Below are positions 13,262 to 23,537 of a stretch of DNA of 64,000 nt, piece by piece. The stretch is taken from UHGV virus genome UHGV-1375844; one strand, 5' to 3'. The stretch is from a virus. The notes beneath the pieces were generated by a model that was not told where the DNA came from, did not search any database, and saw only the letters and a program-made list of their open reading frames with translations. The position numbers were made by a program, and so were the translations under genes. Each line of letters opens with the position of its first letter. The stretch's first letter is position 1.

Positions 13262-13507
13262 TTAGGATTTTGGGCAGTTGATGGAGGTGAACGCCCCTTG
13301 CCCCACCCAACGCCAGTTAAAAATACTCCCGGCCCGATAAAGCGTATACTTACCTTCTTTCTTGATCGCATAAATTGGCACACTCGTTGACGAACCGCCA
13401 ACCATTGCCTTCCCATAGCAAACAGGCTCTGGTAATTTTTGACAGGCGCTCAATGTAAGTGTTACGCCTAGTAATAAAACTAATTTCTTCATTTTATATT
13501 CCATCAT
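13262..13507 (-). CDS. lipoprotein (candidate superinfection-exclusion / receptor-masking protein)
   Basis: Signal peptide plus lipobox LSAC; located inside the RBP-like cluster; AT-rich; start overlaps upstream stop. Confidence 0.5.
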   Translation of the reverse strand: MMEYKMKKLVLLLGVTLTLSACQKLPEPVCYGKAMVGGSSTSVPIYAIKKEGKYTLYRAGSIFNWRWVGQGAFTSINCPKS

Positions 13508-14112
13508 CCGTAGAGATTTCTGTTTAAGACTGGAACTCGGTTGTTGATAGCAAGGCTCGCCCCTCCATTAATTTCATTAACAAGGATAGAACTCACGGTA
13601 TTTCCGTAGCATGTGTAGCCGTAAACCAGCGTCTTAGCGCCACCCGGCATTGGAATAGCAAAGGCGTTAGCGTAAGTTGGCACAACCGCTACCGGATAAT
13701 TGAATACGTGCTTATCATTACTGTTCCAGCTATTATTATCAAGAAATGTGAAAGACAGTGGGATATTTGCCGTGTTATAGATCTCAACCCCTGAAGAATT
13801 GAAAAAACTCATTCCCCATTTTTCTTTTCTGGTTATGCCCGTAGCGAAAACATACACAGTTACGTTTGAATCACTCCCACGTCCACCGAAGCTGTAAATA
13901 ACCTGGTTATTGCGAACTATACGATTCGCAAGCAGTGAAACAGCTTTTGTATACGCCACGAAGACCATAGGGGACCGATCAGGAGATAGTCCCGTATTGA
14001 ACTCGCTCCCCCCTTTCAGTGAGACAACATGTTTGCTCTGGAAAACCAGAGGCGTAAGGCTTGGAGACATCCAGACCTTTCCATCAGATCGAACGATTTT
14101 GCTTCCGTACAT
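13504..14112 (-). CDS. hypothetical tail-fibre-associated protein (202 aa)
   Basis: AT-rich ORF coupled to neighbours by overlapping stop/start. Confidence 0.45.
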   Translation of the reverse strand: MYGSKIVRSDGKVWMSPSLTPLVFQSKHVVSLKGGSEFNTGLSPDRSPMVFVAYTKAVSLLANRIVRNNQVIYSFGGRGSDSNVTVYVFATGITRKEKWGMSFFNSSGVEIYNTANIPLSFTFLDNNSWNSNDKHVFNYPVAVVPTYANAFAIPMPGGAKTLVYGYTCYGNTVSSILVNEINGGASLAINNRVPVLNRNLYG

Positions 14113-14366
14113 TATTTCTGAAACACCATTAGGTAGATGGTTCCGTATGCATTTGTCCAGTTAATCTGGTTTCCTGAAATGGTTACACTGCCAATGTTGC
14201 CATTCAGTGTTTCCATAATGTAGTAATCAAGAGACATCCCCGACTCGACAGCATACCTTCTGCTGCCGCTACCGGTTGGCTGAAAATAATCCAGATAATA
14301 AATTGGCGCTAAGGCGTCGACCATTTCCTGTCTGCTCGGCGACCAAATTTTTGCTCCATAACTCAT
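14112..14366 (-). CDS. hypothetical protein (84 aa)
   Basis: Small ORF, TAATG overlap with next gene. Confidence 0.4.
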   Translation of the reverse strand: MSYGAKIWSPSRQEMVDALAPIYYLDYFQPTGSGSRRYAVESGMSLDYYIMETLNGNIGSVTISGNQINWTNAYGTIYLMVFQK

Positions 14367-14409
14367 ATATCATCCTTGATTATGTAAGGCGCTTGTGGGC
14401 GCCTTCTAA

Positions 14410-14967
14410 TTAAATTTTAGTTACGGCAATCGTTTTGCCATTTTGATTGTAAAGCCAGCCTCCTGCTGTACTCGCTCTATAATGCCTGGTGTTATATGCA
14501 AAGTGGCTCGGAGTGAAGGTAAAATTAGTTCCACCAAAAGAAAGCGTGAAATTTTGGTTCGGCCCATTAGTTAAACCTATATACATGGTTGTCGCATTTT
14601 GAACCTGGGAAACATGCGTAATAGCACACCCCAATAATGTTCCACTAACAGAGCCTGTTGCGTTAATCGAGAGCGGTTGTTGCGCACCGCTTACGACTGT
14701 TGCAGCAATGGCTCCTGTTTGAACGGAGTTATTTGAAAAACCACCATACGAGGATGTCCCTTGAATGAATTGACCGTTCGAAATCTGCGCTCTGAAAGCG
14801 TATGTGTTCCGGCCAACCACCACCGTGAAGTCCTGCATCGCTTTTCCAACCAGAGAACTCATCCAAAACGGAGTGCCAACCTTAACTTTGGAGCCAGCGG
14901 CAGACATCCACCGCTGGCCAGTAGTTGATACGGCTGACGACCCGACCCATCCTGAGCCAATCGCCAT
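14410..14967 (-). CDS. putative receptor-binding / tail fibre protein sharing N-terminal domain with 12152..12976
   Basis: MAIGSGWVGSSAVSTTGQRWMSAAG...VGTPFWM closely matches N-terminus of the Gly-rich protein. Confidence 0.5.
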   Translation of the reverse strand: MAIGSGWVGSSAVSTTGQRWMSAAGSKVKVGTPFWMSSLVGKAMQDFTVVVGRNTYAFRAQISNGQFIQGTSSYGGFSNNSVQTGAIAATVVSGAQQPLSINATGSVSGTLLGCAITHVSQVQNATTMYIGLTNGPNQNFTLSFGGTNFTFTPSHFAYNTRHYRASTAGGWLYNQNGKTIAVTKI

Positions 14968-17900
14968 TATCTGTTCTCCTTGATTTCACGGATTTCGTCA
15001 CGCAGCTCTTTCACCGCTTCGACCAGCAGTCCAATGACGCCGTTATAGTTCAGACGCAGACGCTCTTCCCCGGATTGGTCATTTTTATCAACCGTTACCA
15101 GTTCTGGCTGTACCTTCTGAACATCCTGAGCGATCAGGCCACCAGACTGCTCGTATCGATCATGTACCTGAATCTCATACAGAACCCCTTCAATCTGCCC
15201 CAGCTTGTCGAGTGCGCTCTCGATTTTGCGGATATTCCGCTTACTTCTACGGTCAGAACGGATATATACGTCGTTGAAGCTACCATTACCGCCACATACC
15301 CAAGTGCCATCGTTTTGCAGATATGCCTGGGCATCCGTACCGTTGGCCGTCCGTGAGTTGTTGATCATGTAAAAACCAAACTGGCTGTTACCCAGACCGC
15401 CGACGAAAAACTTACGATCGGCATGATCTTGTCTCAACAACGCTTGGGCCGAGCTGGTTGACACGGCATTCCGTCCAAAAATAACGTTCTGATCACGCAT
15501 GTTAATCCACGAGCCAGAGCCGCTATTGATGGCGAAGCGACCTGCGTAGACCCACGCACTTGAAGTAATGTCTCCTGACACAGAAAGGGGCTTATTGCTT
15601 TGCAACGTCCCGTTGACGAATCGGAACACATGAGCGCTATTGGCGTAGACATCCAGTACGCCATCCCCATTTTGCTTAAACCCGGTATCGTTATCTCCCA
15701 GAACAATAGAGTTCCCACCTAATCCATTCGTTACGCCTAAACCGAGGCTGCCGGCAATAGTTGCGCCACCAGCGATATCAAGGCCGTTAGCCATCGACGC
15801 ACGACCAGAAGTGTTGTTAATGGTCAGCGGTCGAAGGCCGTTCCATCCACCAAACTTGTCGCCTGATGCCGTTAAAAGGAAATAGGTGCTGCTGCCATCG
15901 TTTCGGATGAAGAAGCCAAAGTTACCGTAAGCAGCTCGCAGAGCATTGGCGCTTAATGAGGTGATCTCATTTCTTGCACGAACACCATATCCAGTGTTGA
16001 TAATGAGTTCCTCTTGCGCGTCAGTATTCCCTGTCGCCCAACGGATAGTTCCACCCTGAACCGTCTCGTGCCAGATTGTGTCGCTACTTCCCCCGCGGTA
16101 TTTGCGGAGATATTTCTTACCCCCTGTCGTGCCTCCACATAAAGCGGTGGCCATGTACGTGCCCTGGGCGCCGCCATCCTGATTAATGGTTCCGGTAACT
16201 GCTCCACCGCCTGTAGGGAGTGCCCCAACCTCAGCGGCGCTCGGTTTGTTAGCCGTGGTGTAGATCTGCGCCCAACCAGACCAATTGGCGTCAGTGGTAT
16301 CACGACGAGAGCGGATGTAAGCTGGGGCATGGCCACCGCTGGTGCCACTCCAGCCGAGTAACAACTCGCCTTCGCCTGCAGCAGACCCTCCTTTAAAATG
16401 AAGAACGTTGCCGTAAGTTGTTGGATAGCCGTTGTTGTAGGCTTCATACATCTGGATACCCGGCATGGCCCCCTGCGTACTTCCGGCCAGCGCGGTAACG
16501 CGACCGCGAGATACCAGAGTAGGGATGCTGATATTCGCGGTACCATCAAAAGCGACATTGTTGATCGATCTTGCCGTCTGCAATTTGCTCGCTGAGACCG
16601 CATTAGCACCTGAAGCAAGAGCGCCAATATCGGCAGGCGTTGGCTTATTACGGGTGTTATATAAGCGACGCCAGCCTGGTCCATAGCCGTCACCATTATT
16701 TACGTAAATAAACTCGGCGTTAGTTACCCCACCATGACCTGTCGTCGTTGGTGTGGTAATGCGGATCGTGTAGTTACCTGAGTTTCCATTGCTGAAAACT
16801 TCAATAACTGAACCAGAGAGATCAATCCTGCCGCATCCAGTGTCGTCAATGTAGTTATTGCTGGCGTAAGACCATGAGCAACGCGCGATCCAACATTTAT
16901 ACCCAAAAGCACCTTGTTCATTAAGCCAGGTAACAAACTGAGCTGTGGTAAAGGCCGCACCACTGCCACTATTCAGCCAACCACTAACTGCTGCCGCAGC
17001 ATTGATGTTTGCCGGGCTAATGTTAATGTCAGAAGAACCGTCGAAGTTTACACCTGCGATTTTACGTGCGGTTTGTAGCTTAGTTGCAGTCGCTGCGTTG
17101 CCTGTCGTGCTTTGATTTCCCTGGGTGTTAACACCAGGCAAGTTGATATCGGCGGAACCGTCAAAATTCACCCCACCAATTTTTCGGGGCGTCCTGAGCT
17201 TGCTGGCCGTACCCGCATTCCCTGATGTTGACTGGTTCCCCTCGGCATTCACACCCGGAAGATTGATGTCCTGGCTGCCATCGAACAGCACCCCACCAAT
17301 ACGACGTCCCGTCTGGAGTACCGTCGCAGTACTCGCATTGCCCACCAGTGAGCCTGTAATAGCACCATTGATGTCTGAAAGTACTCGATGATATACCGTT
17401 CCCTCTACGGCGCCTTCAGGCAACGAGTCAACCGATTCGATCACTTCCAGCGATTCAACCGCGGCGCCGGAGAATTGCAGGTTCACAATTAACTTTTGAG
17501 CGCCCGCGCCCACGCGAAGGTAGATGTCGTAATTTTCTTCGTCGGTATTAACGGTGGCCACGCTATTTACAGCGGAGTCCTGCGTTAAATAGGCAACAGC
17601 ATTGAGACCTTTGGGATCGCCCCCCGCTGTGCGAAGAACAATGTCAGCCATCGCAGCCTGGCCTGGGCTATCGGTATCATAGCCAGCGCCACCGATCACT
17701 TCGATGTAGACAGTGCTGGTCGCTTGCGGCATACGCGCACGCGAGACTTTTACCCACTTGGGCGTATCAGAGGTCAAGTCCAGTTCGGCGGACGTACCTT
17801 TCCATTTCACGCTGGCGATACTGGACTGCGCATTCTGCGCATATTCGTATGCCTTGTCCTCAGACGCTTTCGCTTTCGTCTGGGATGCTTTGGCCTCAGC

Positions 17901-19166
17901 TGCCGAAGTCGAGGCCTCGGACGCTTTTGCTGTCGCGAGTGTGGCCGACTCAGCGGCTTCTGTTGCCTTTGCTTCAATACCTGCCAGCGCGTCAGTTGCG
18001 GTGGTCGCAGATGCGGCTGCGCTTGCCTCAGACTTCTTCGCTTCGCCAGCACTTGATGCAGCTGCATCTTTGCTGGCCTCTGCCGCATCAGCATATTCGC
18101 CAGCTGTAGTGGCGCTCCCCGCCGCCGCGTCAGCGCTTAAACCGGCAGCCACTTTACTCGCGGCGGCGGCTGTTTCCGAGGCGGCAGCGTTGGTTTCAGA
18201 CACTTTAGCCGCGGCAGCGCTGGCGGCCGACCCGTCGGCGCTCTGCGCCGCGTTTGTTTCAGATGTTTTGGCTGCGTTCTGAGATGCAAGTGCGGCAGCT
18301 GCACTACCCGCTGCTGCGTTTTCCGATGCGGCGGCATTGCTCTCAGAAACTTCAGCAGCCGCAGCGGAATTAGATGCTGCGGTCGCAGAATCCGCAGCAG
18401 AGACAGCGCTGCCAGCAGCGTTAGTTTCTGAGGCTTTCGCGGCATTTTTGGACGCTGCGGCACTCGAAGCAGATGCCCCTGCTTCGGCGGCTTTCTCCGT
18501 TGCGGTGGCAGCTGAAGCTACAGCAGTCTCTTTATAGCTTTCTGCATTCGTTTCGGAGGTCTTTGCACCCTTAGCGGCTTCGCTGGCAACGCTTTCGGAT
18601 GCAGCAGCTGCGGCAGCACTTTTACTGGCCTCAGTCGCCTTTGTTCCGGCAGTGCTTGCGCTATTGGCAGCTGCTGCTGCGCTGGCGGCTGCCTGTTTAG
18701 CTTTGTCACCCGCGGCATCGATTGCATCCGTATTGTCTCTGTACCATTGCTGGTTGGCATTGTGCTCATTGACGATTTGGGTGAGCGATTTGACTGTCAC
18801 CTCAGTGCCGTCCTCGCGTTCGAGTGTCACTTCATCAATGGCAGTTAACCAGCTTCGCATTGTCTTCGAGTCGGCTGACATTCGAGTCATCAATGCCGTG
18901 AAGCGAGCACTGAACTGTGTCAGATCGCCTTCATAGGTAGTGATGATGCGGCATGGGACATCATTCTGGGTCTCACCCGAGTACTGCTCCATAAGTGTCA
19001 GGCGGGTGTCATTTAGCACACGCTTAATTTCGTACAGCTTGTTATCGGGGCCGATGACAATCATGCCCGGCAACACGCCATTGGCAGTGACGTTCCAAAA
19101 CGTGCCAGTGCCCTCAAGCGTGTCACTTCCCTGTGTAAATGTGATAGTACCTTCCCTGTACCACAT
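14967..19166 (-). CDS. lateral (L-shaped-type) tail fibre with C-terminal intramolecular chaperone domain
   Basis: 1399 aa; C-terminal DVYIRSDRRSKRNIRKIE matches the self-cleaving chaperone signature of tail fibres/endosialidases; Ala-rich region; repeated FDGS.DIN units. Confidence 0.75.
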   Translation of the reverse strand: MWYREGTITFTQGSDTLEGTGTFWNVTANGVLPGMIVIGPDNKLYEIKRVLNDTRLTLMEQYSGETQNDVPCRIITTYEGDLTQFSARFTALMTRMSADSKTMRSWLTAIDEVTLEREDGTEVTVKSLTQIVNEHNANQQWYRDNTDAIDAAGDKAKQAAASAAAAANSASTAGTKATEASKSAAAAAASESVASEAAKGAKTSETNAESYKETAVASAATATEKAAEAGASASSAAASKNAAKASETNAAGSAVSAADSATAASNSAAAAEVSESNAAASENAAAGSAAAALASQNAAKTSETNAAQSADGSAASAAAAKVSETNAAASETAAAASKVAAGLSADAAAGSATTAGEYADAAEASKDAAASSAGEAKKSEASAAASATTATDALAGIEAKATEAAESATLATAKASEASTSAAEAKASQTKAKASEDKAYEYAQNAQSSIASVKWKGTSAELDLTSDTPKWVKVSRARMPQATSTVYIEVIGGAGYDTDSPGQAAMADIVLRTAGGDPKGLNAVAYLTQDSAVNSVATVNTDEENYDIYLRVGAGAQKLIVNLQFSGAAVESLEVIESVDSLPEGAVEGTVYHRVLSDINGAITGSLVGNASTATVLQTGRRIGGVLFDGSQDINLPGVNAEGNQSTSGNAGTASKLRTPRKIGGVNFDGSADINLPGVNTQGNQSTTGNAATATKLQTARKIAGVNFDGSSDINISPANINAAAAVSGWLNSGSGAAFTTAQFVTWLNEQGAFGYKCWIARCSWSYASNNYIDDTGCGRIDLSGSVIEVFSNGNSGNYTIRITTPTTTGHGGVTNAEFIYVNNGDGYGPGWRRLYNTRNKPTPADIGALASGANAVSASKLQTARSINNVAFDGTANISIPTLVSRGRVTALAGSTQGAMPGIQMYEAYNNGYPTTYGNVLHFKGGSAAGEGELLLGWSGTSGGHAPAYIRSRRDTTDANWSGWAQIYTTANKPSAAEVGALPTGGGAVTGTINQDGGAQGTYMATALCGGTTGGKKYLRKYRGGSSDTIWHETVQGGTIRWATGNTDAQEELIINTGYGVRARNEITSLSANALRAAYGNFGFFIRNDGSSTYFLLTASGDKFGGWNGLRPLTINNTSGRASMANGLDIAGGATIAGSLGLGVTNGLGGNSIVLGDNDTGFKQNGDGVLDVYANSAHVFRFVNGTLQSNKPLSVSGDITSSAWVYAGRFAINSGSGSWINMRDQNVIFGRNAVSTSSAQALLRQDHADRKFFVGGLGNSQFGFYMINNSRTANGTDAQAYLQNDGTWVCGGNGSFNDVYIRSDRRSKRNIRKIESALDKLGQIEGVLYEIQVHDRYEQSGGLIAQDVQKVQPELVTVDKNDQSGEERLRLNYNGVIGLLVEAVKELRDEIREIKENR

Positions 19167-19253: not shown

Positions 19254-22200
19254 TCAAAGCAAGCCAATGCGCACCCGGAGAACATTGTTGTCATCATAAA
19301 CATCAATGCGCTGACCATTAATGACCAAACGACCGTTGCCACCGCTGTTGCCGTTAATCTCCAGAACTCCGTTTTTGCCAAACCGCCACCCAGAGCGCCC
19401 GGAAACAAAATTCGTAGACTGGAGATCGCCCACTTTGGCATTGGTAATCGTGCCATCCTTGATATAGGCGCCATTCATGTAAGCAATGCTGTTTTCAACC
19501 ACGAACGGCGTTGTAACCTTCCCGTTCACTGAGTTCACCAATCCAAAACGGTCGGCTTGAACAAGGAATTGAGACAGGCCAGTGCTGTCGATCCCCAGCG
19601 CGATGCCGGCAACATACTTCTGCCCGCCGCTGGTGGATGTCTCCATCTTAAGTGTCCAAGCTGTAGAGACCTTTTTATTGGTATCTGCAATAGCTGTCGC
19701 CTGTTGCCTAATCGTTGCAGAGTTACCGTCAACAGAGGCTTTTAGCGTGTCGATACGTGACCCCAACGCCCCATCAGCATTAGCCCTGGCGTTCGCCTCG
19801 GACGTAATCGCTGCATTAATGTCCTTGCCAGTCTGGGCTTTCAGGCTTGTGATCTGCCCGGCCAGCGCCGAATCGGCATCAGTACGAGCTTTAGTCTCAG
19901 TAGCAACCGCTGCTTTGATGTCCTGTGCAGTCTGGGCCTTTAACGTGCTGATCTGGGTTGCCAGTGCGCTATCCGCGTCAGTACGCGCTTTCGTTTCACT
20001 GGCAACTGCCGCCTTAATATCCTCCCCCGTCTGAGCCTTGAGGCTGGTAATTTGTTTGGATAATGCCTCATCCCCTGAAGCTCGTGCGGTCTGCTCTTCC
20101 GTAAGAGCCGCACTAATGTCACCTTCTACCTTCGCCTGCAGTGACGTAATCTGCCTGGAAAGCGATTCATCCGCAGTCGCTCGGGCCTCCTGCTCAGAAA
20201 CAATGGCCGCAGAAATATCATCATTGATCTGGGCTTCCAGCTTGGTGATTTGTGTTGCGATCGCCTTATCAGCTTCAACACGAGCTGTCGTCTCTTCGGT
20301 AATAGATGCCCGGATGTCCTCACCAATCTCTGCGCGGATCTCTTCCACTTTGGAGGCCATCGCAGACATATCGTCAGCAAAGGTCTTTTGAGTGGTGGCG
20401 ATCTTCGCATTATTGACCATCTGCTTATGCTGGTCTTCGTCCTGTCGCAGTGCGAGGTCGATGTTGGTTTTGGCCAATGCCTCGATATTAGTCGTCACTT
20501 CCGCGCTGGCACGTTCGACTTCGGCAACGGTCTTTTTCATCTCTTCGACAGCGGCTACGCTATCATCGACAGAAGACTTAATCGCCTCGATCTGTTTGGC
20601 GTTCGCCTTGTCACCCTCTACTCTGGCCTCTCGCTCTTCAGCAATTAAGGCAGATGAATTGTCCAGGGCCGCTTGAGCCGCTTCAACCGCGCCGGCCACT
20701 GCTTTGCCCTGTTCAGACACAGTCTCCTGCAATTCAACCAGGGCGGCGTTTGAGTCTTCGACTTGACTCAGCGCCTCGTTAACCTTATCGAGCGTGCCAG
20801 ACACCTCTGTTTTCAGGTCATTCTGGGCCTGCTCAAGTCTGTCGCTGGTCTCTGACAGCTTCCCGTCCAGATCGGAAACAGACTGGTCGAGTTCTTTGAG
20901 GCTTTCCTCCATCTGCTTATTGATAGCGTCAACGGCTTCTTGAGAGGCTTTGGTGTCAATTTCCTCCAACAGTTCCTGCCCCAGCTCAGAAGACGTGATC
21001 TTACCTGTCAGGAAAGAAAGCACGTCTTTCGTCATAGCCTCTGTACCCAGATTAGAGTTAGGCGGACTTAACATGCCTCGTTTATTGGCTGCACGTACCC
21101 AATAGAACCAGGTCTCGCTATCCCCTAAACCCGCATGGGTAAAGGTCGTGCTGGCCGACTCAGCGATCAGCTTGGCTGTGTCCAGATTGTTAGTCTGGGA
21201 TGCATATACGTTGATATGGTCGAGGTCGATTGAGTCTGGGTTTACCCAATTCAAAATCACATTTCGGTAGTCGCCAACGGCCGTCAAAGCAGTCGGGGCG
21301 TCAGGCGGAGTCATCGTTCCCTGCACTTTGTATACGGTGCTGATAATCTCCGTCTTCTTACCGCTAAACGACACTGCGTACAGCTGGATGTCGTACTGCC
21401 CGTTTTCAGCAATATTGATGATCTCATATTGCTCTTCCGTTACGCGTGCCGACTGCCAGTTAGAAACGTTGTTAGCATCAGAACGTCGCCAGCTGATCCA
21501 GTATTCAGCAGATTTACCTTCCCACGTAGCAATGAGCTTGATTGAAAGGTTGCCCGGGCTGGAAATATACGTCCCTTCCGTAACCTGCAAATTTGTCGGC
21601 TTCGAGAAAGTCGGGTCAAGAACAGTATTGTTTTCCGGAATCAACGTCGCCCCGTTGTCGATGGCTTCGTATTTCGATGGGTTGTTCTGGACAACCGTAA
21701 CATCGAAAGATCCCTGGGCATCACCTTGCGCAACGTTAATAACACGCACACGCATTGGCTCCAGATCTGGCTCGGTGATAGTCCAGACGCCGTTCAACAC
21801 AGGCATATCGCCTGACGACAGCGATTTTGAGAAGGTAACTTTGGTAAGGTTCTCACCGGTCTCAAGAATGTCTCTCTCGACGATTTTACCTTCCTGATTC
21901 ATGACACGGATGTAGCTGCCGCCTTTCTTCAGCGTTACCGGCGCATCGAGCGTGATGCTGTTCTTGTTGAACGCCATAATGCGCCCGGAATTGCGTTTGC
22001 CGGCGCGATATTTGTTCTGAATCAGAACAGTCTCGCCAGGCATTAAGAAAGAGGCATCCAGACCTGCAGTAAAGGTGATTACGTCAGATTCCATGCGAGC
22101 GGTATACAGGAGCCACAGCCCGACTCGATGCGCCTGGCCACGACTGGTGCAGCCAAACGCCACGACTTCAGTTTTGCGCTCGCCATAGCGACGCATCGCC

Positions 22201-23537
22201 TCCTGGTCTTCAACGTATTCGATGTTCTGCTTATAGCCATCTTCCTTGTTGTTGTAGGTTACAAGTGCAACGGAAGGACGGTCTTTGCGAGCAGATCCTT
22301 TGTAGCTGAATAAACCATCTTTGACGTTGGCATTAGTGAACATCATTACCGGATCAGATGGGCTATCCTGCATGACATTAACCATACCACCAGCCCAGAA
22401 AACCATACCGCGGAACGCTCCAGCGATGTCCTGAATCAGTCGGTAAGCGTCCTGTCGGCTCGTGATCTGAGTGTTGATAGCGAAGCGTTTTTCTTTACCG
22501 CCGAAACCATCGTCGATCTCTTCATCGCAATAGCGGCCAATTTGGTAGAGCTGCCCCAGGTCGATCATGGATTCGGAAACGAACTGCCCGAGGCCGTAAC
22601 GTGCGTTTGTCAGTACGTCGAAAAGAATCCACGCCGGGTTCGAAGATGACAACAGCTTAAAGGTGCCATCCCAGATGCCTTCATAGGTGTTAGTTTTTTC
22701 GTTGTAGTTTGACGGCACACGAATTTTTAAACCGCGAACCAGATACGAACGAGAAGGCATAGAACTACCAAACTGCTCGGAGTTAACCTTAAGCCCCACC
22801 AGAGCGGAGTTCGGGTAGTTCATTGGCGTATCAACGATCTCACCGATCGAGTCAACCCAGGTGTCGTTATACAGATACTGAGTTTTACTGTCGTCAGTAA
22901 GCCGGATGACGCGAACCTTATATGCCCGGCCAGGTTTCGGCAGCTTCAGCTCATAGCTGCGGTAGTAAACGCCTGTTTTCTTCGCTGTCAGCGCGATCTC
23001 AACGTTTTTCTCTCCTTCGGCAACCACGTCAGAGAATGTTCCGTCGCCGTTGGCGATCTGAAACTTGTACTGGACGGTCGTACCATTGGTATCCCCGGAT
23101 TTTTTATCCACGCTACGCAATGAAGGAAACTTGAGGATGACGCGAACGCGATCGGCTTCGTCGTTGTCGATGGAGACCGTAACGTCATGCGTTTTTTTCA
23201 ACTGAATGTTGATGGACTTCGGCGTCTCGACGAAATCAAAACCGGCCATAGGCGTCTGGTCTTGCGAGCCATCGCGAAAATCCCATGTAATGCCGCTGTA
23301 GTTTGCAGAGCCGTCTTCGTTGAGGATCGGCAGATCGTCGATAAAAATCGACTTCGCGCCATCTACCAAGCCACCAATAACACCTTCCCCGAGCAGATCG
23401 AGGATGGATGCCATAGCACGCGAGTTAACGGTATCATCCGCTTCAACCGGTGTGCGGCTTGAGCCACTGCTTTTCTTACCGCCTGCACCTGCGATCAGGA
23501 GAGGAAGTCTTTTCTTCTTGAACTGTTCCATGTTCAA
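19254..23537 (-). CDS. J: tail tip / host-specificity protein, lambda J-like
   Basis: 1427 aa; N-terminus aligns by eye with lambda gpJ (LLGEGVIGGLVDGAKSIFIDD vs gpJ ISEGPIEGPVDG); follows I/K/L/M-like genes. Confidence 0.85.
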   Translation of the reverse strand: MNMEQFKKKRLPLLIAGAGGKKSSGSSRTPVEADDTVNSRAMASILDLLGEGVIGGLVDGAKSIFIDDLPILNEDGSANYSGITWDFRDGSQDQTPMAGFDFVETPKSINIQLKKTHDVTVSIDNDEADRVRVILKFPSLRSVDKKSGDTNGTTVQYKFQIANGDGTFSDVVAEGEKNVEIALTAKKTGVYYRSYELKLPKPGRAYKVRVIRLTDDSKTQYLYNDTWVDSIGEIVDTPMNYPNSALVGLKVNSEQFGSSMPSRSYLVRGLKIRVPSNYNEKTNTYEGIWDGTFKLLSSSNPAWILFDVLTNARYGLGQFVSESMIDLGQLYQIGRYCDEEIDDGFGGKEKRFAINTQITSRQDAYRLIQDIAGAFRGMVFWAGGMVNVMQDSPSDPVMMFTNANVKDGLFSYKGSARKDRPSVALVTYNNKEDGYKQNIEYVEDQEAMRRYGERKTEVVAFGCTSRGQAHRVGLWLLYTARMESDVITFTAGLDASFLMPGETVLIQNKYRAGKRNSGRIMAFNKNSITLDAPVTLKKGGSYIRVMNQEGKIVERDILETGENLTKVTFSKSLSSGDMPVLNGVWTITEPDLEPMRVRVINVAQGDAQGSFDVTVVQNNPSKYEAIDNGATLIPENNTVLDPTFSKPTNLQVTEGTYISSPGNLSIKLIATWEGKSAEYWISWRRSDANNVSNWQSARVTEEQYEIINIAENGQYDIQLYAVSFSGKKTEIISTVYKVQGTMTPPDAPTALTAVGDYRNVILNWVNPDSIDLDHINVYASQTNNLDTAKLIAESASTTFTHAGLGDSETWFYWVRAANKRGMLSPPNSNLGTEAMTKDVLSFLTGKITSSELGQELLEEIDTKASQEAVDAINKQMEESLKELDQSVSDLDGKLSETSDRLEQAQNDLKTEVSGTLDKVNEALSQVEDSNAALVELQETVSEQGKAVAGAVEAAQAALDNSSALIAEEREARVEGDKANAKQIEAIKSSVDDSVAAVEEMKKTVAEVERASAEVTTNIEALAKTNIDLALRQDEDQHKQMVNNAKIATTQKTFADDMSAMASKVEEIRAEIGEDIRASITEETTARVEADKAIATQITKLEAQINDDISAAIVSEQEARATADESLSRQITSLQAKVEGDISAALTEEQTARASGDEALSKQITSLKAQTGEDIKAAVASETKARTDADSALATQISTLKAQTAQDIKAAVATETKARTDADSALAGQITSLKAQTGKDINAAITSEANARANADGALGSRIDTLKASVDGNSATIRQQATAIADTNKKVSTAWTLKMETSTSGGQKYVAGIALGIDSTGLSQFLVQADRFGLVNSVNGKVTTPFVVENSIAYMNGAYIKDGTITNAKVGDLQSTNFVSGRSGWRFGKNGVLEINGNSGGNGRLVINGQRIDVYDDNNVLRVRIGLL
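19700..20350 (-). repeat. tandem ~81-bp (27-aa) coding repeats inside J-like gene
   Basis: About 7 units of E.ARTDADSAL..QITSLKAQTG.DIKAAV; boundaries approximate. Confidence 0.6.

Follow-up and report, generated by a model that had tools for sequence, protein, structure and literature searches.

A 33-residue repeat array in the J-like central tail fibre of an SSU5-like phage-plasmid is related to the F-type pyocin shaft and may refold on receptor contact

The J-like central tail fibre gene of UHGV virus genome UHGV-1375844, analysed here as a stretch of 64,000 nucleotides (nt; the window), encodes a tandem array of 33-residue units. Modelling and sequence comparison suggest that these units are the distal half of a long predicted alpha-helical shaft in a trimeric central fibre, lying between tip-closing FNIII domains and a terminal beta-prism. 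Sequence comparison shows the array to be a homologue of the coiled-coil shaft in the central fibre of F-type pyocins. Taken alone, the predicted helical shaft and the pyocin homology are very probably correct. The preferred reading goes further and draws on analogy with the pyocin: at a probability of roughly 0.55, the array may be a modular, metamorphic shaft that refolds on receptor contact. Structures of this kind have been known since 2026 and the J array adds to them; new here are a putative switching segment built of countable 33-residue units and its natural copy-number series.

The features of the gene are listed below with the evidence for each, including a profile hidden Markov model (HMM) of the repeat unit and structure prediction with AlphaFold2 (AF2); aa denotes amino acid residues of the J protein.
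19254 to 23531, minus strand: gene for the lambda-J-like central tail fibre or tip attachment protein, 1425 aa (Pfam, PHROG and lambda gpJ matches)
21066 to 23531, minus strand: hub and FNIII domains, the lambda-J-like N-terminal part, aa 1-822 (Pfam, structure-sequence alignments)
20367 to 21020, minus strand: proximal non-repeat part of the shaft, aa 838-1055, including the degenerate unit (hydrophobic period, weak Pfam matches)
20550 to 20639, minus strand: degenerate unit, aa 965-994 (19 bits with the unit HMM)
20298 to 20366, minus strand: partial unit, aa 1056-1078, unit positions 11-33 (5.5 bits with the unit HMM; forward motif at aa 1057)
19704 to 20297, minus strand: six full units of 33 aa (99 nt), aa 1079-1276 (self-identity, unit HMM)
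20199 to 20297, minus strand: unit U1
20100 to 20198, minus strand: unit U2
20001 to 20099, minus strand: unit U3
19902 to 20000, minus strand: unit U4
19803 to 19901, minus strand: unit U5
19704 to 19802, minus strand: unit U6
19311 to 19715, minus strand: distal beta-prism domain (PF09327, aa 1273-1407), equivalent of the lambda 'central straight fibre' (Pfam, AF2, Foldseek)

The repeat was defined from self-identity of the J protein, which reached 0.46 at a lag of 33 residues, 0.41 at 66 and 0.38 at 99, and was at most 0.15 at all other lags. The initial annotation had placed about seven tandem repeats here, between the lambda J-like N-terminal part and a distal domain. The location, approximate number, coordinates and consensus agree with the unit register, which gives six full units, one partial and one degenerate, and the distal domain is PF09327; the proposed period of 27 residues has to be replaced by 33 (99 nt). 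The consensus of the six window units is SETxARAxADxALAxQITSLKAQTxxDIxAAxx, with E2, A5, R6, D10, I17, L20 and A22 invariant among them. The degenerate unit lies 114 aa on the N-terminal side of the first full unit, within a segment (aa 838-1055) that has a heptad-like hydrophobic period of 3.56 and weak helical-bundle matches in Pfam, and that we infer to be helical. No family model in Pfam or NCBIfam covers the 33-residue repeat.

At the DNA level the array is faint. Identity at a lag of 99 nt was 0.56, compared with 0.288 ± 0.021 at other in-frame lags; units are 40-71% identical to one another in nucleotides, and the longest exact run in register between units is 10 nt. Neither Tandem Repeats Finder (TRF), a check that the initial annotation had recommended, nor a direct-repeat finder reported a 99-nt array on the DNA. 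The repeats are thus visible in the protein, as had been claimed, and only weakly in the DNA.

Chance or low complexity was considered as an origin of the repeats and was ruled out by the autocorrelation together with conservation across 1479 units.

Each unit also carries the pattern expected of a pair of beta-strands. The motif SxSxxMxxLxS is present, in alternating direction, in every strand of the beta-prism of the F7 pyocin, where Glu or Asp at M pairs with an Arg at a distance of four residues (He et al., preprint, PMC12874032). Between aa 1056 and 1276 of J, 15 perfect matches to this motif or its reverse were found, in strictly alternating orientation and at steps of 15 and 18 residues; composition-matched shuffles gave 3.1 ± 1.8 matches, and none of 2000 reached 15. 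The reversed motif occupies unit positions 30-33 and 1-7; Glu2 is its M residue, and Arg6 follows four residues later. The forward motif occupies positions 12-22, and two linkers rich in Asp, Gly and Asn separate the two motifs. In the set of 1479 units, drawn from 150 diverse representatives, small residues filled the six S positions in 95-100% of cases and E2, R6 and D10 were kept in 100%, 99% and 95%, a conservation that is partly circular, the units having been gathered with an HMM built from the six window units.

The closest counterpart of the array was found in the F-type pyocins (PA0641 / PyoF10; PDB 25vf). The C-terminal 588 aa of J aligned with residues 916-1193 of the F2 pyocin fibre (25vf_A) at E 2.4e-28, and the last J unit matched pyocin residues 1038-1068 at 41 bits. 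In the pyocin, residues 907-1085 form a resolved trimeric coiled-coil shaft that bears side fibres and is followed by a predicted beta-prism (PMC13455828; bioRxiv 10.64898/2026.02.24.707460). Both fibres run from a J-like hub through FNIII domains and a long trimeric helical shaft, predicted or inferred in the case of J, to a beta-prism that lacks a receptor-binding domain of its own. They share the alternating SxSxxMxxLxS motif, spaced by 32 residues in the pyocin and 33 in J, and a last unit of nearly identical sequence. The pyocin shaft is degenerate (about 163 residues, roughly five units), and the unit model gives a good score to its last unit alone, whereas J has 6.7 well-kept units after an extra helical segment of 218 aa. 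J moreover belongs to a DNA-injecting phage-plasmid and the pyocin is a tailocin.

It is the behaviour of the pyocin shaft that suggests a fold switch in J, demonstrated in the former and proposed by analogy in the latter. In F7, a coiled coil of 163 residues (921-1083) is converted to a beta-prism on cell contact, with one subunit per face; as a result the tip opens and the tape measure protein is ejected. Replacement by Gln of the small prism-corner residues A987, A995, V1010 and A1017 abolished killing and left assembly intact (PMC12874032 for both). The F2 fragment carries these same F7 residues under the same numbers. V1010 and A1017 occupy S positions of motifs called by our scan; A987 and A995 fit S positions of a forward motif on manual reading only, its M position being Thr and the motif uncalled by the scan.

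Structure prediction gave a helix for most of the array. From the single sequence, AF2 modelled the monomer as helix over aa 1041-1290 at a predicted local confidence score (pLDDT) of about 80; with an alignment of 36 sequences, the monomer was a continuous helix over aa 1042-1256 at pLDDT 85-94, and strands began at aa 1259, inside unit 6, and continued through PF09327. Since the modelled beta-prism begins within the last unit, repeat sequence was modelled in both states. The array has a hydrophobic period of 3.66 (33/9), consistent with an under-wound coiled coil. When the AF2 model was compared with the PDB by Foldseek, it matched the open-state fibre of lambda gpJ and the SU10 tip; these fibre tips were the only matches and no pyocin structures were returned.

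From these data a mechanism can be proposed. In the virion the array would be a three-stranded coiled coil in which each unit adds about 5 nm, giving six units a length of about 30 nm, within a shaft of about 63 nm if helical throughout. Each unit would hold two 11-residue strand motifs of opposite orientation with Asp/Gly/Asn-rich turns between them. On receptor contact one unit after another would refold into a beta-hairpin rung of about 1 nm, and the array would become a trimeric beta-prism, with the adjoining beta-prism as the seed; this would shorten the fibre and release energy to open the tail tip, and the number of units would determine how far the fibre reaches and how large the stroke is. 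More tentatively, the 33-residue unit may be the quantum of a metamorphic spring, in which nine helical turns (about 5 nm) become one beta-hairpin rung (about 1 nm). SSU5-like elements naturally carry 2-10 units and the J proteins of other siphophages more than 20, and such a series may match stroke length and stored energy to how thick the host envelope (O-antigen, capsule) is.

Besides the partial circularity of the family-wide conservation, several points weigh against refolding. Both AF2 runs, of a monomer and with at most 36 sequences, gave helix, and neither yielded the array as a beta-prism. A fold switch of this kind is demonstrated for one pyocin only, in a preprint, whose authors state that lambda and T5 do not undergo the same extensive switch (PMC12874032). 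No PyoF11- or PyoF12-like genes follow J, the next gene being a long side fibre, and the 221-aa array sits below about 218 aa of further helical shaft, for which the pyocin offers no clear equivalent.

An alternative, possible but in our judgement rather unlikely, is that the array is a static spacer: a permanent trimeric coiled coil that sets fibre length and serves as a docking platform for side fibres, with unit number tuning reach and no refolding. It would account for the confident continuous helix from AF2, for the coiled-coil pyocin shaft that bears side fibres, and for the variation of unit number without loss of frame. By analogy with that shaft, side fibres might dock on the predicted coiled coil of J. 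A plain coiled coil, however, has no need of 95-100% small residues at six positions of each unit outside the 3.67-residue hydrophobic stripe, nor of the Asp/Gly/Asn-rich turns, features that He et al. link to the beta-prism (PMC12874032). AF2, moreover, models the last unit as strand. We favour the refolding shaft over a permanent one.

Two solved phage fibres bear on the comparison. Lambda gpJ (PMC11101478; PDB 8iyk, 8xcj) has a homologous hub and FNIII domains, PF09327, a neighbourhood of the M-L-K-I-J type and the open-state fibre that the AF2 model matched. It has only a short three-helix bundle (the alpha-helical shaft, AHS) and no tandem 33-residue array, unlike J, and carries a C-terminal receptor-binding domain for LamB that J lacks. 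T1 gp33 (PDB 9l9p; PMC11945409) contains 33-residue units, two of them nearly identical, and a C-terminal end like that of J. It has fewer units than J, and T1 is virulent and belongs to another family; the C-terminal 350 residues of gp33 are not resolved in the structure (PMC11945409).

The J gene starts with the ATG at 23531 (MEQF...) and its stop codon lies at 19254-19256; the open reading frame (ORF) list had placed the start at a TTG at 23537, two codons upstream of the MEQF ATG that all 1425-aa homologues use. Pfam matches were FNIII-A_GpJ at aa 101-235 (2.8e-30), Phage-tail_3 at aa 357-520 (3.4e-34), a weak fn3 at aa 744-822, and Phage_Tail_Tip PF09327 at aa 1273-1407 (E 1.9e-41); the PHROG match was PHROG 31, 'central tail fiber J'. 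The solved lambda gpJ (8iyk_J) aligned over aa 20-869 at E 2e-132, and aa 17-870 aligned to lambda J, T1 gp33 and the F2 pyocin fibre. The PF09327 region matched lambda J residues 841-960 and the T1 gp33 C-terminus, and J ends 18 aa past PF09327, with no separate receptor-binding domain. The NCBIfam model for strict equivalence, lambda_TipJ, gave 555 bits against a cut-off of 1950. On these sequence matches J is a relative of lambda J and not the same protein. ORFs upstream of J match PHROGs 18, 30 and 32 (minor tail and tail assembly proteins), the equivalents of lambda L, K and I. Existing annotation of the protein reads 'phage tail protein' only.

The J gene shares 99.5% identity with a copy carried by a Salmonella enterica plasmid of 106.6 kb and 82% with the gene of phage SSU5, and its relatives were found in 347 plasmid records (Escherichia, Enterobacter, Yersinia, Salmonella, Citrobacter); the window therefore derives from an SSU5-like phage-plasmid. 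Within the gene the hub is conserved and the shaft is the most diverged part. Megablast similarity to the E. coli phages Cyrano and CMS-2020a ends at window position 20927 (about aa 870), where the helical shaft begins, and similarity to SSU5 ends at 19987, inside unit 4.

The unit is not confined to close relatives of this gene. A profile built from the six window units was searched against protein cluster representatives at 50% identity and matched 1700 of them at E <= 0.001, 123 at E <= 1e-30, with up to 27 stretches in a single protein. Of seven sampled representatives, five were J-like or short proteins in which the repeat immediately precedes PF09327, and the beta-prism domain was detectable by phmmer in 47 of 150 representatives among the matches listed. 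In three homologues (P0134, P0152 and P0171), the array and PF09327 form a separate short protein of 319-421 aa without the J hub, which suggests split central fibres or gene fragments. Literature searches gave no description of tandem repeats in central tail fibres, and neither the word 'repeat' nor SSU5 occurs in the text of He et al. (PMC12874032).

Tandem helical units are also found in streptococcal M proteins and the stalks of trimeric autotransporters, where in-frame insertions and deletions (indels) change unit number and fibre length; such arrays are usually near-identical in DNA and quick to change. The J array differs in that its DNA is diverged, and in that its units also fit a beta-hairpin pattern.

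The initial annotation had proposed that repeat number could vary by slippage or recombination and tune fibre length or host range. The unit HMM was run on 120 close homologues, three encoding contigs and 78 loci from genomes and IMG/VR; the genome-contig scan supplied 5 loci and the viral-contig scan was far more productive. Repeat count is not invariant: across 80 loci and 120 proteins it ranged from 2 to 10 full units, always in steps of 32-33 aa, as follows.
Loci (n = 80), by number of full units: 2 units, 5 loci; 3 units, 2; 4 units, 4; 5 units, 21; 6 units, 9; 7 units, 3; 8 units, 3; 9 units, 4; 10 units, 29
Proteins (n = 120), by number of full units: 5 units, 96 proteins; 6 units, 21; 8 units, 1; 10 units, 2

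E. coli elements alone had 5, 6, 8 or 10 units. An SSU5-type Salmonella homologue (P0017) had 5, and the corresponding region of SSU5 itself is 40 aa shorter than that of the window. Any gain or loss of units must alter the length of the fibre; for a helical array the step would be about 5 nm per unit. In three close gene pairs, the sole internal difference was an exact in-frame indel within the array.
P0025 and P0120: 98.8% nucleotide identity, a single 198-nt gap
L055 and L057: 95.0% nucleotide identity, a single 99-nt gap
L023 and L061: 95.9% nucleotide identity, a single 99-nt gap

In the first pair the shorter gene carries a hybrid unit, with junctions in shared runs of 8 and 10 nt. Unit number thus changes in evolution by exact 99-nt in-frame gains and losses between poorly matching units. 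The window gene aligned with its plasmid relatives, five at 95-99.5% identity and many at 81-85%, as one ungapped piece of equal length. No copy-number difference was seen among near-identical isolates, represented by the five plasmids at 95-99.5%; differences in unit number from the window were found only between more distant lineages.

In L057, three units (J residues 1242-1340) are about 90% identical in protein and 71-75% identical in DNA, with synonymous sites scrambled between neighbouring units. Old duplications constrained at the protein level could explain this contrast, as could selection against DNA homology, which would make the array unstable.

A slippage-prone contingency array, with high-frequency change in populations and mixed fibre lengths, would produce exact indels such as those of 99 and 198 nt among relatives, and several unit numbers such as those within E. 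coli elements. We consider such an array highly improbable: TRF and the repeat finder were negative, DNA identity between units is 40-71% with exact runs of at most 10 nt, the L057 units combine similar protein with dissimilar DNA, and gene length is the same in relatives at 81-99.5% nucleotide identity. With unit identity no higher than 71% and runs this short, high-frequency slippage is unlikely, and the units are also too diverged for frequent RecA-type recombination. The diverged units and the stable length among close relatives point to episodic evolutionary change rather than population-level hypervariability. Of the proposal in the initial annotation, the variation itself stands, as exact indels, and frequent slippage or recombination as its cause is not supported.

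Equally improbable is that the repeats act mainly as common homology through which phages exchange the distal receptor-binding module, as the same array with different C-terminal tails (149 against 231-305 aa) might suggest: between-unit DNA homology is too low to guide recombination, and in the two homologues P0018 and P0019 the array and the first 80 or so aa of the beta-prism are 94-100% identical to the window and similarity falls only from about aa 1350, inside PF09327, so that the swap point is not in the array.

Among relatives, C-terminal tails of 149, 231, 261-267, 286-288 and 305 aa were found. In P0018 and P0019 the last 75 or so aa of J (from about aa 1350; window 19254-19480) are replaced by a distal domain 120-140 aa longer, and the module boundary inside PF09327 lies near ...GTIxNAKxG.

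The gene next downstream of J and the three small genes after it (window 13504-14967, minus strand) were also annotated.
14967 to 19166, minus strand: side (long) tail fibre gene, 1399 aa (Pfam Gp34_trimer and Peptidase_S74; PHROG tail fibre families)

The side fibre has an Ala/Ser-rich low-complexity stretch at about aa 150-470 and, at about aa 600-730, a unit of about 40 aa (GNxxTAxKLxTxRKIxGVxFDGSxDINLPGVN) present in three tandem copies, followed by the Gp34 trimerisation domain and then the Peptidase_S74 chaperone domain. The small genes encode proteins of 185 aa ('tail fiber adhesin' type, phrog_1121), 84 aa ('outer membrane protein' type, phrog_557) and 202 aa (membrane-associated moron type, phrog_425).

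The repeat is without a Pfam or NCBIfam model though present in about 1700 protein clusters at 50% identity. SSU5-like elements are a common group of phage-plasmids in Enterobacteriaceae that also carry resistance genes. The preferred reading bears on the energy source by which non-contractile tails breach the cell envelope. If it is true for SSU5-type J, the switching segment would be built of countable 33-residue units, with natural variants of 2-10 units in otherwise similar proteins; the dependence of fibre reach, stroke and host range on unit number would then be directly testable, and the natural series would be a ready-made dose series.

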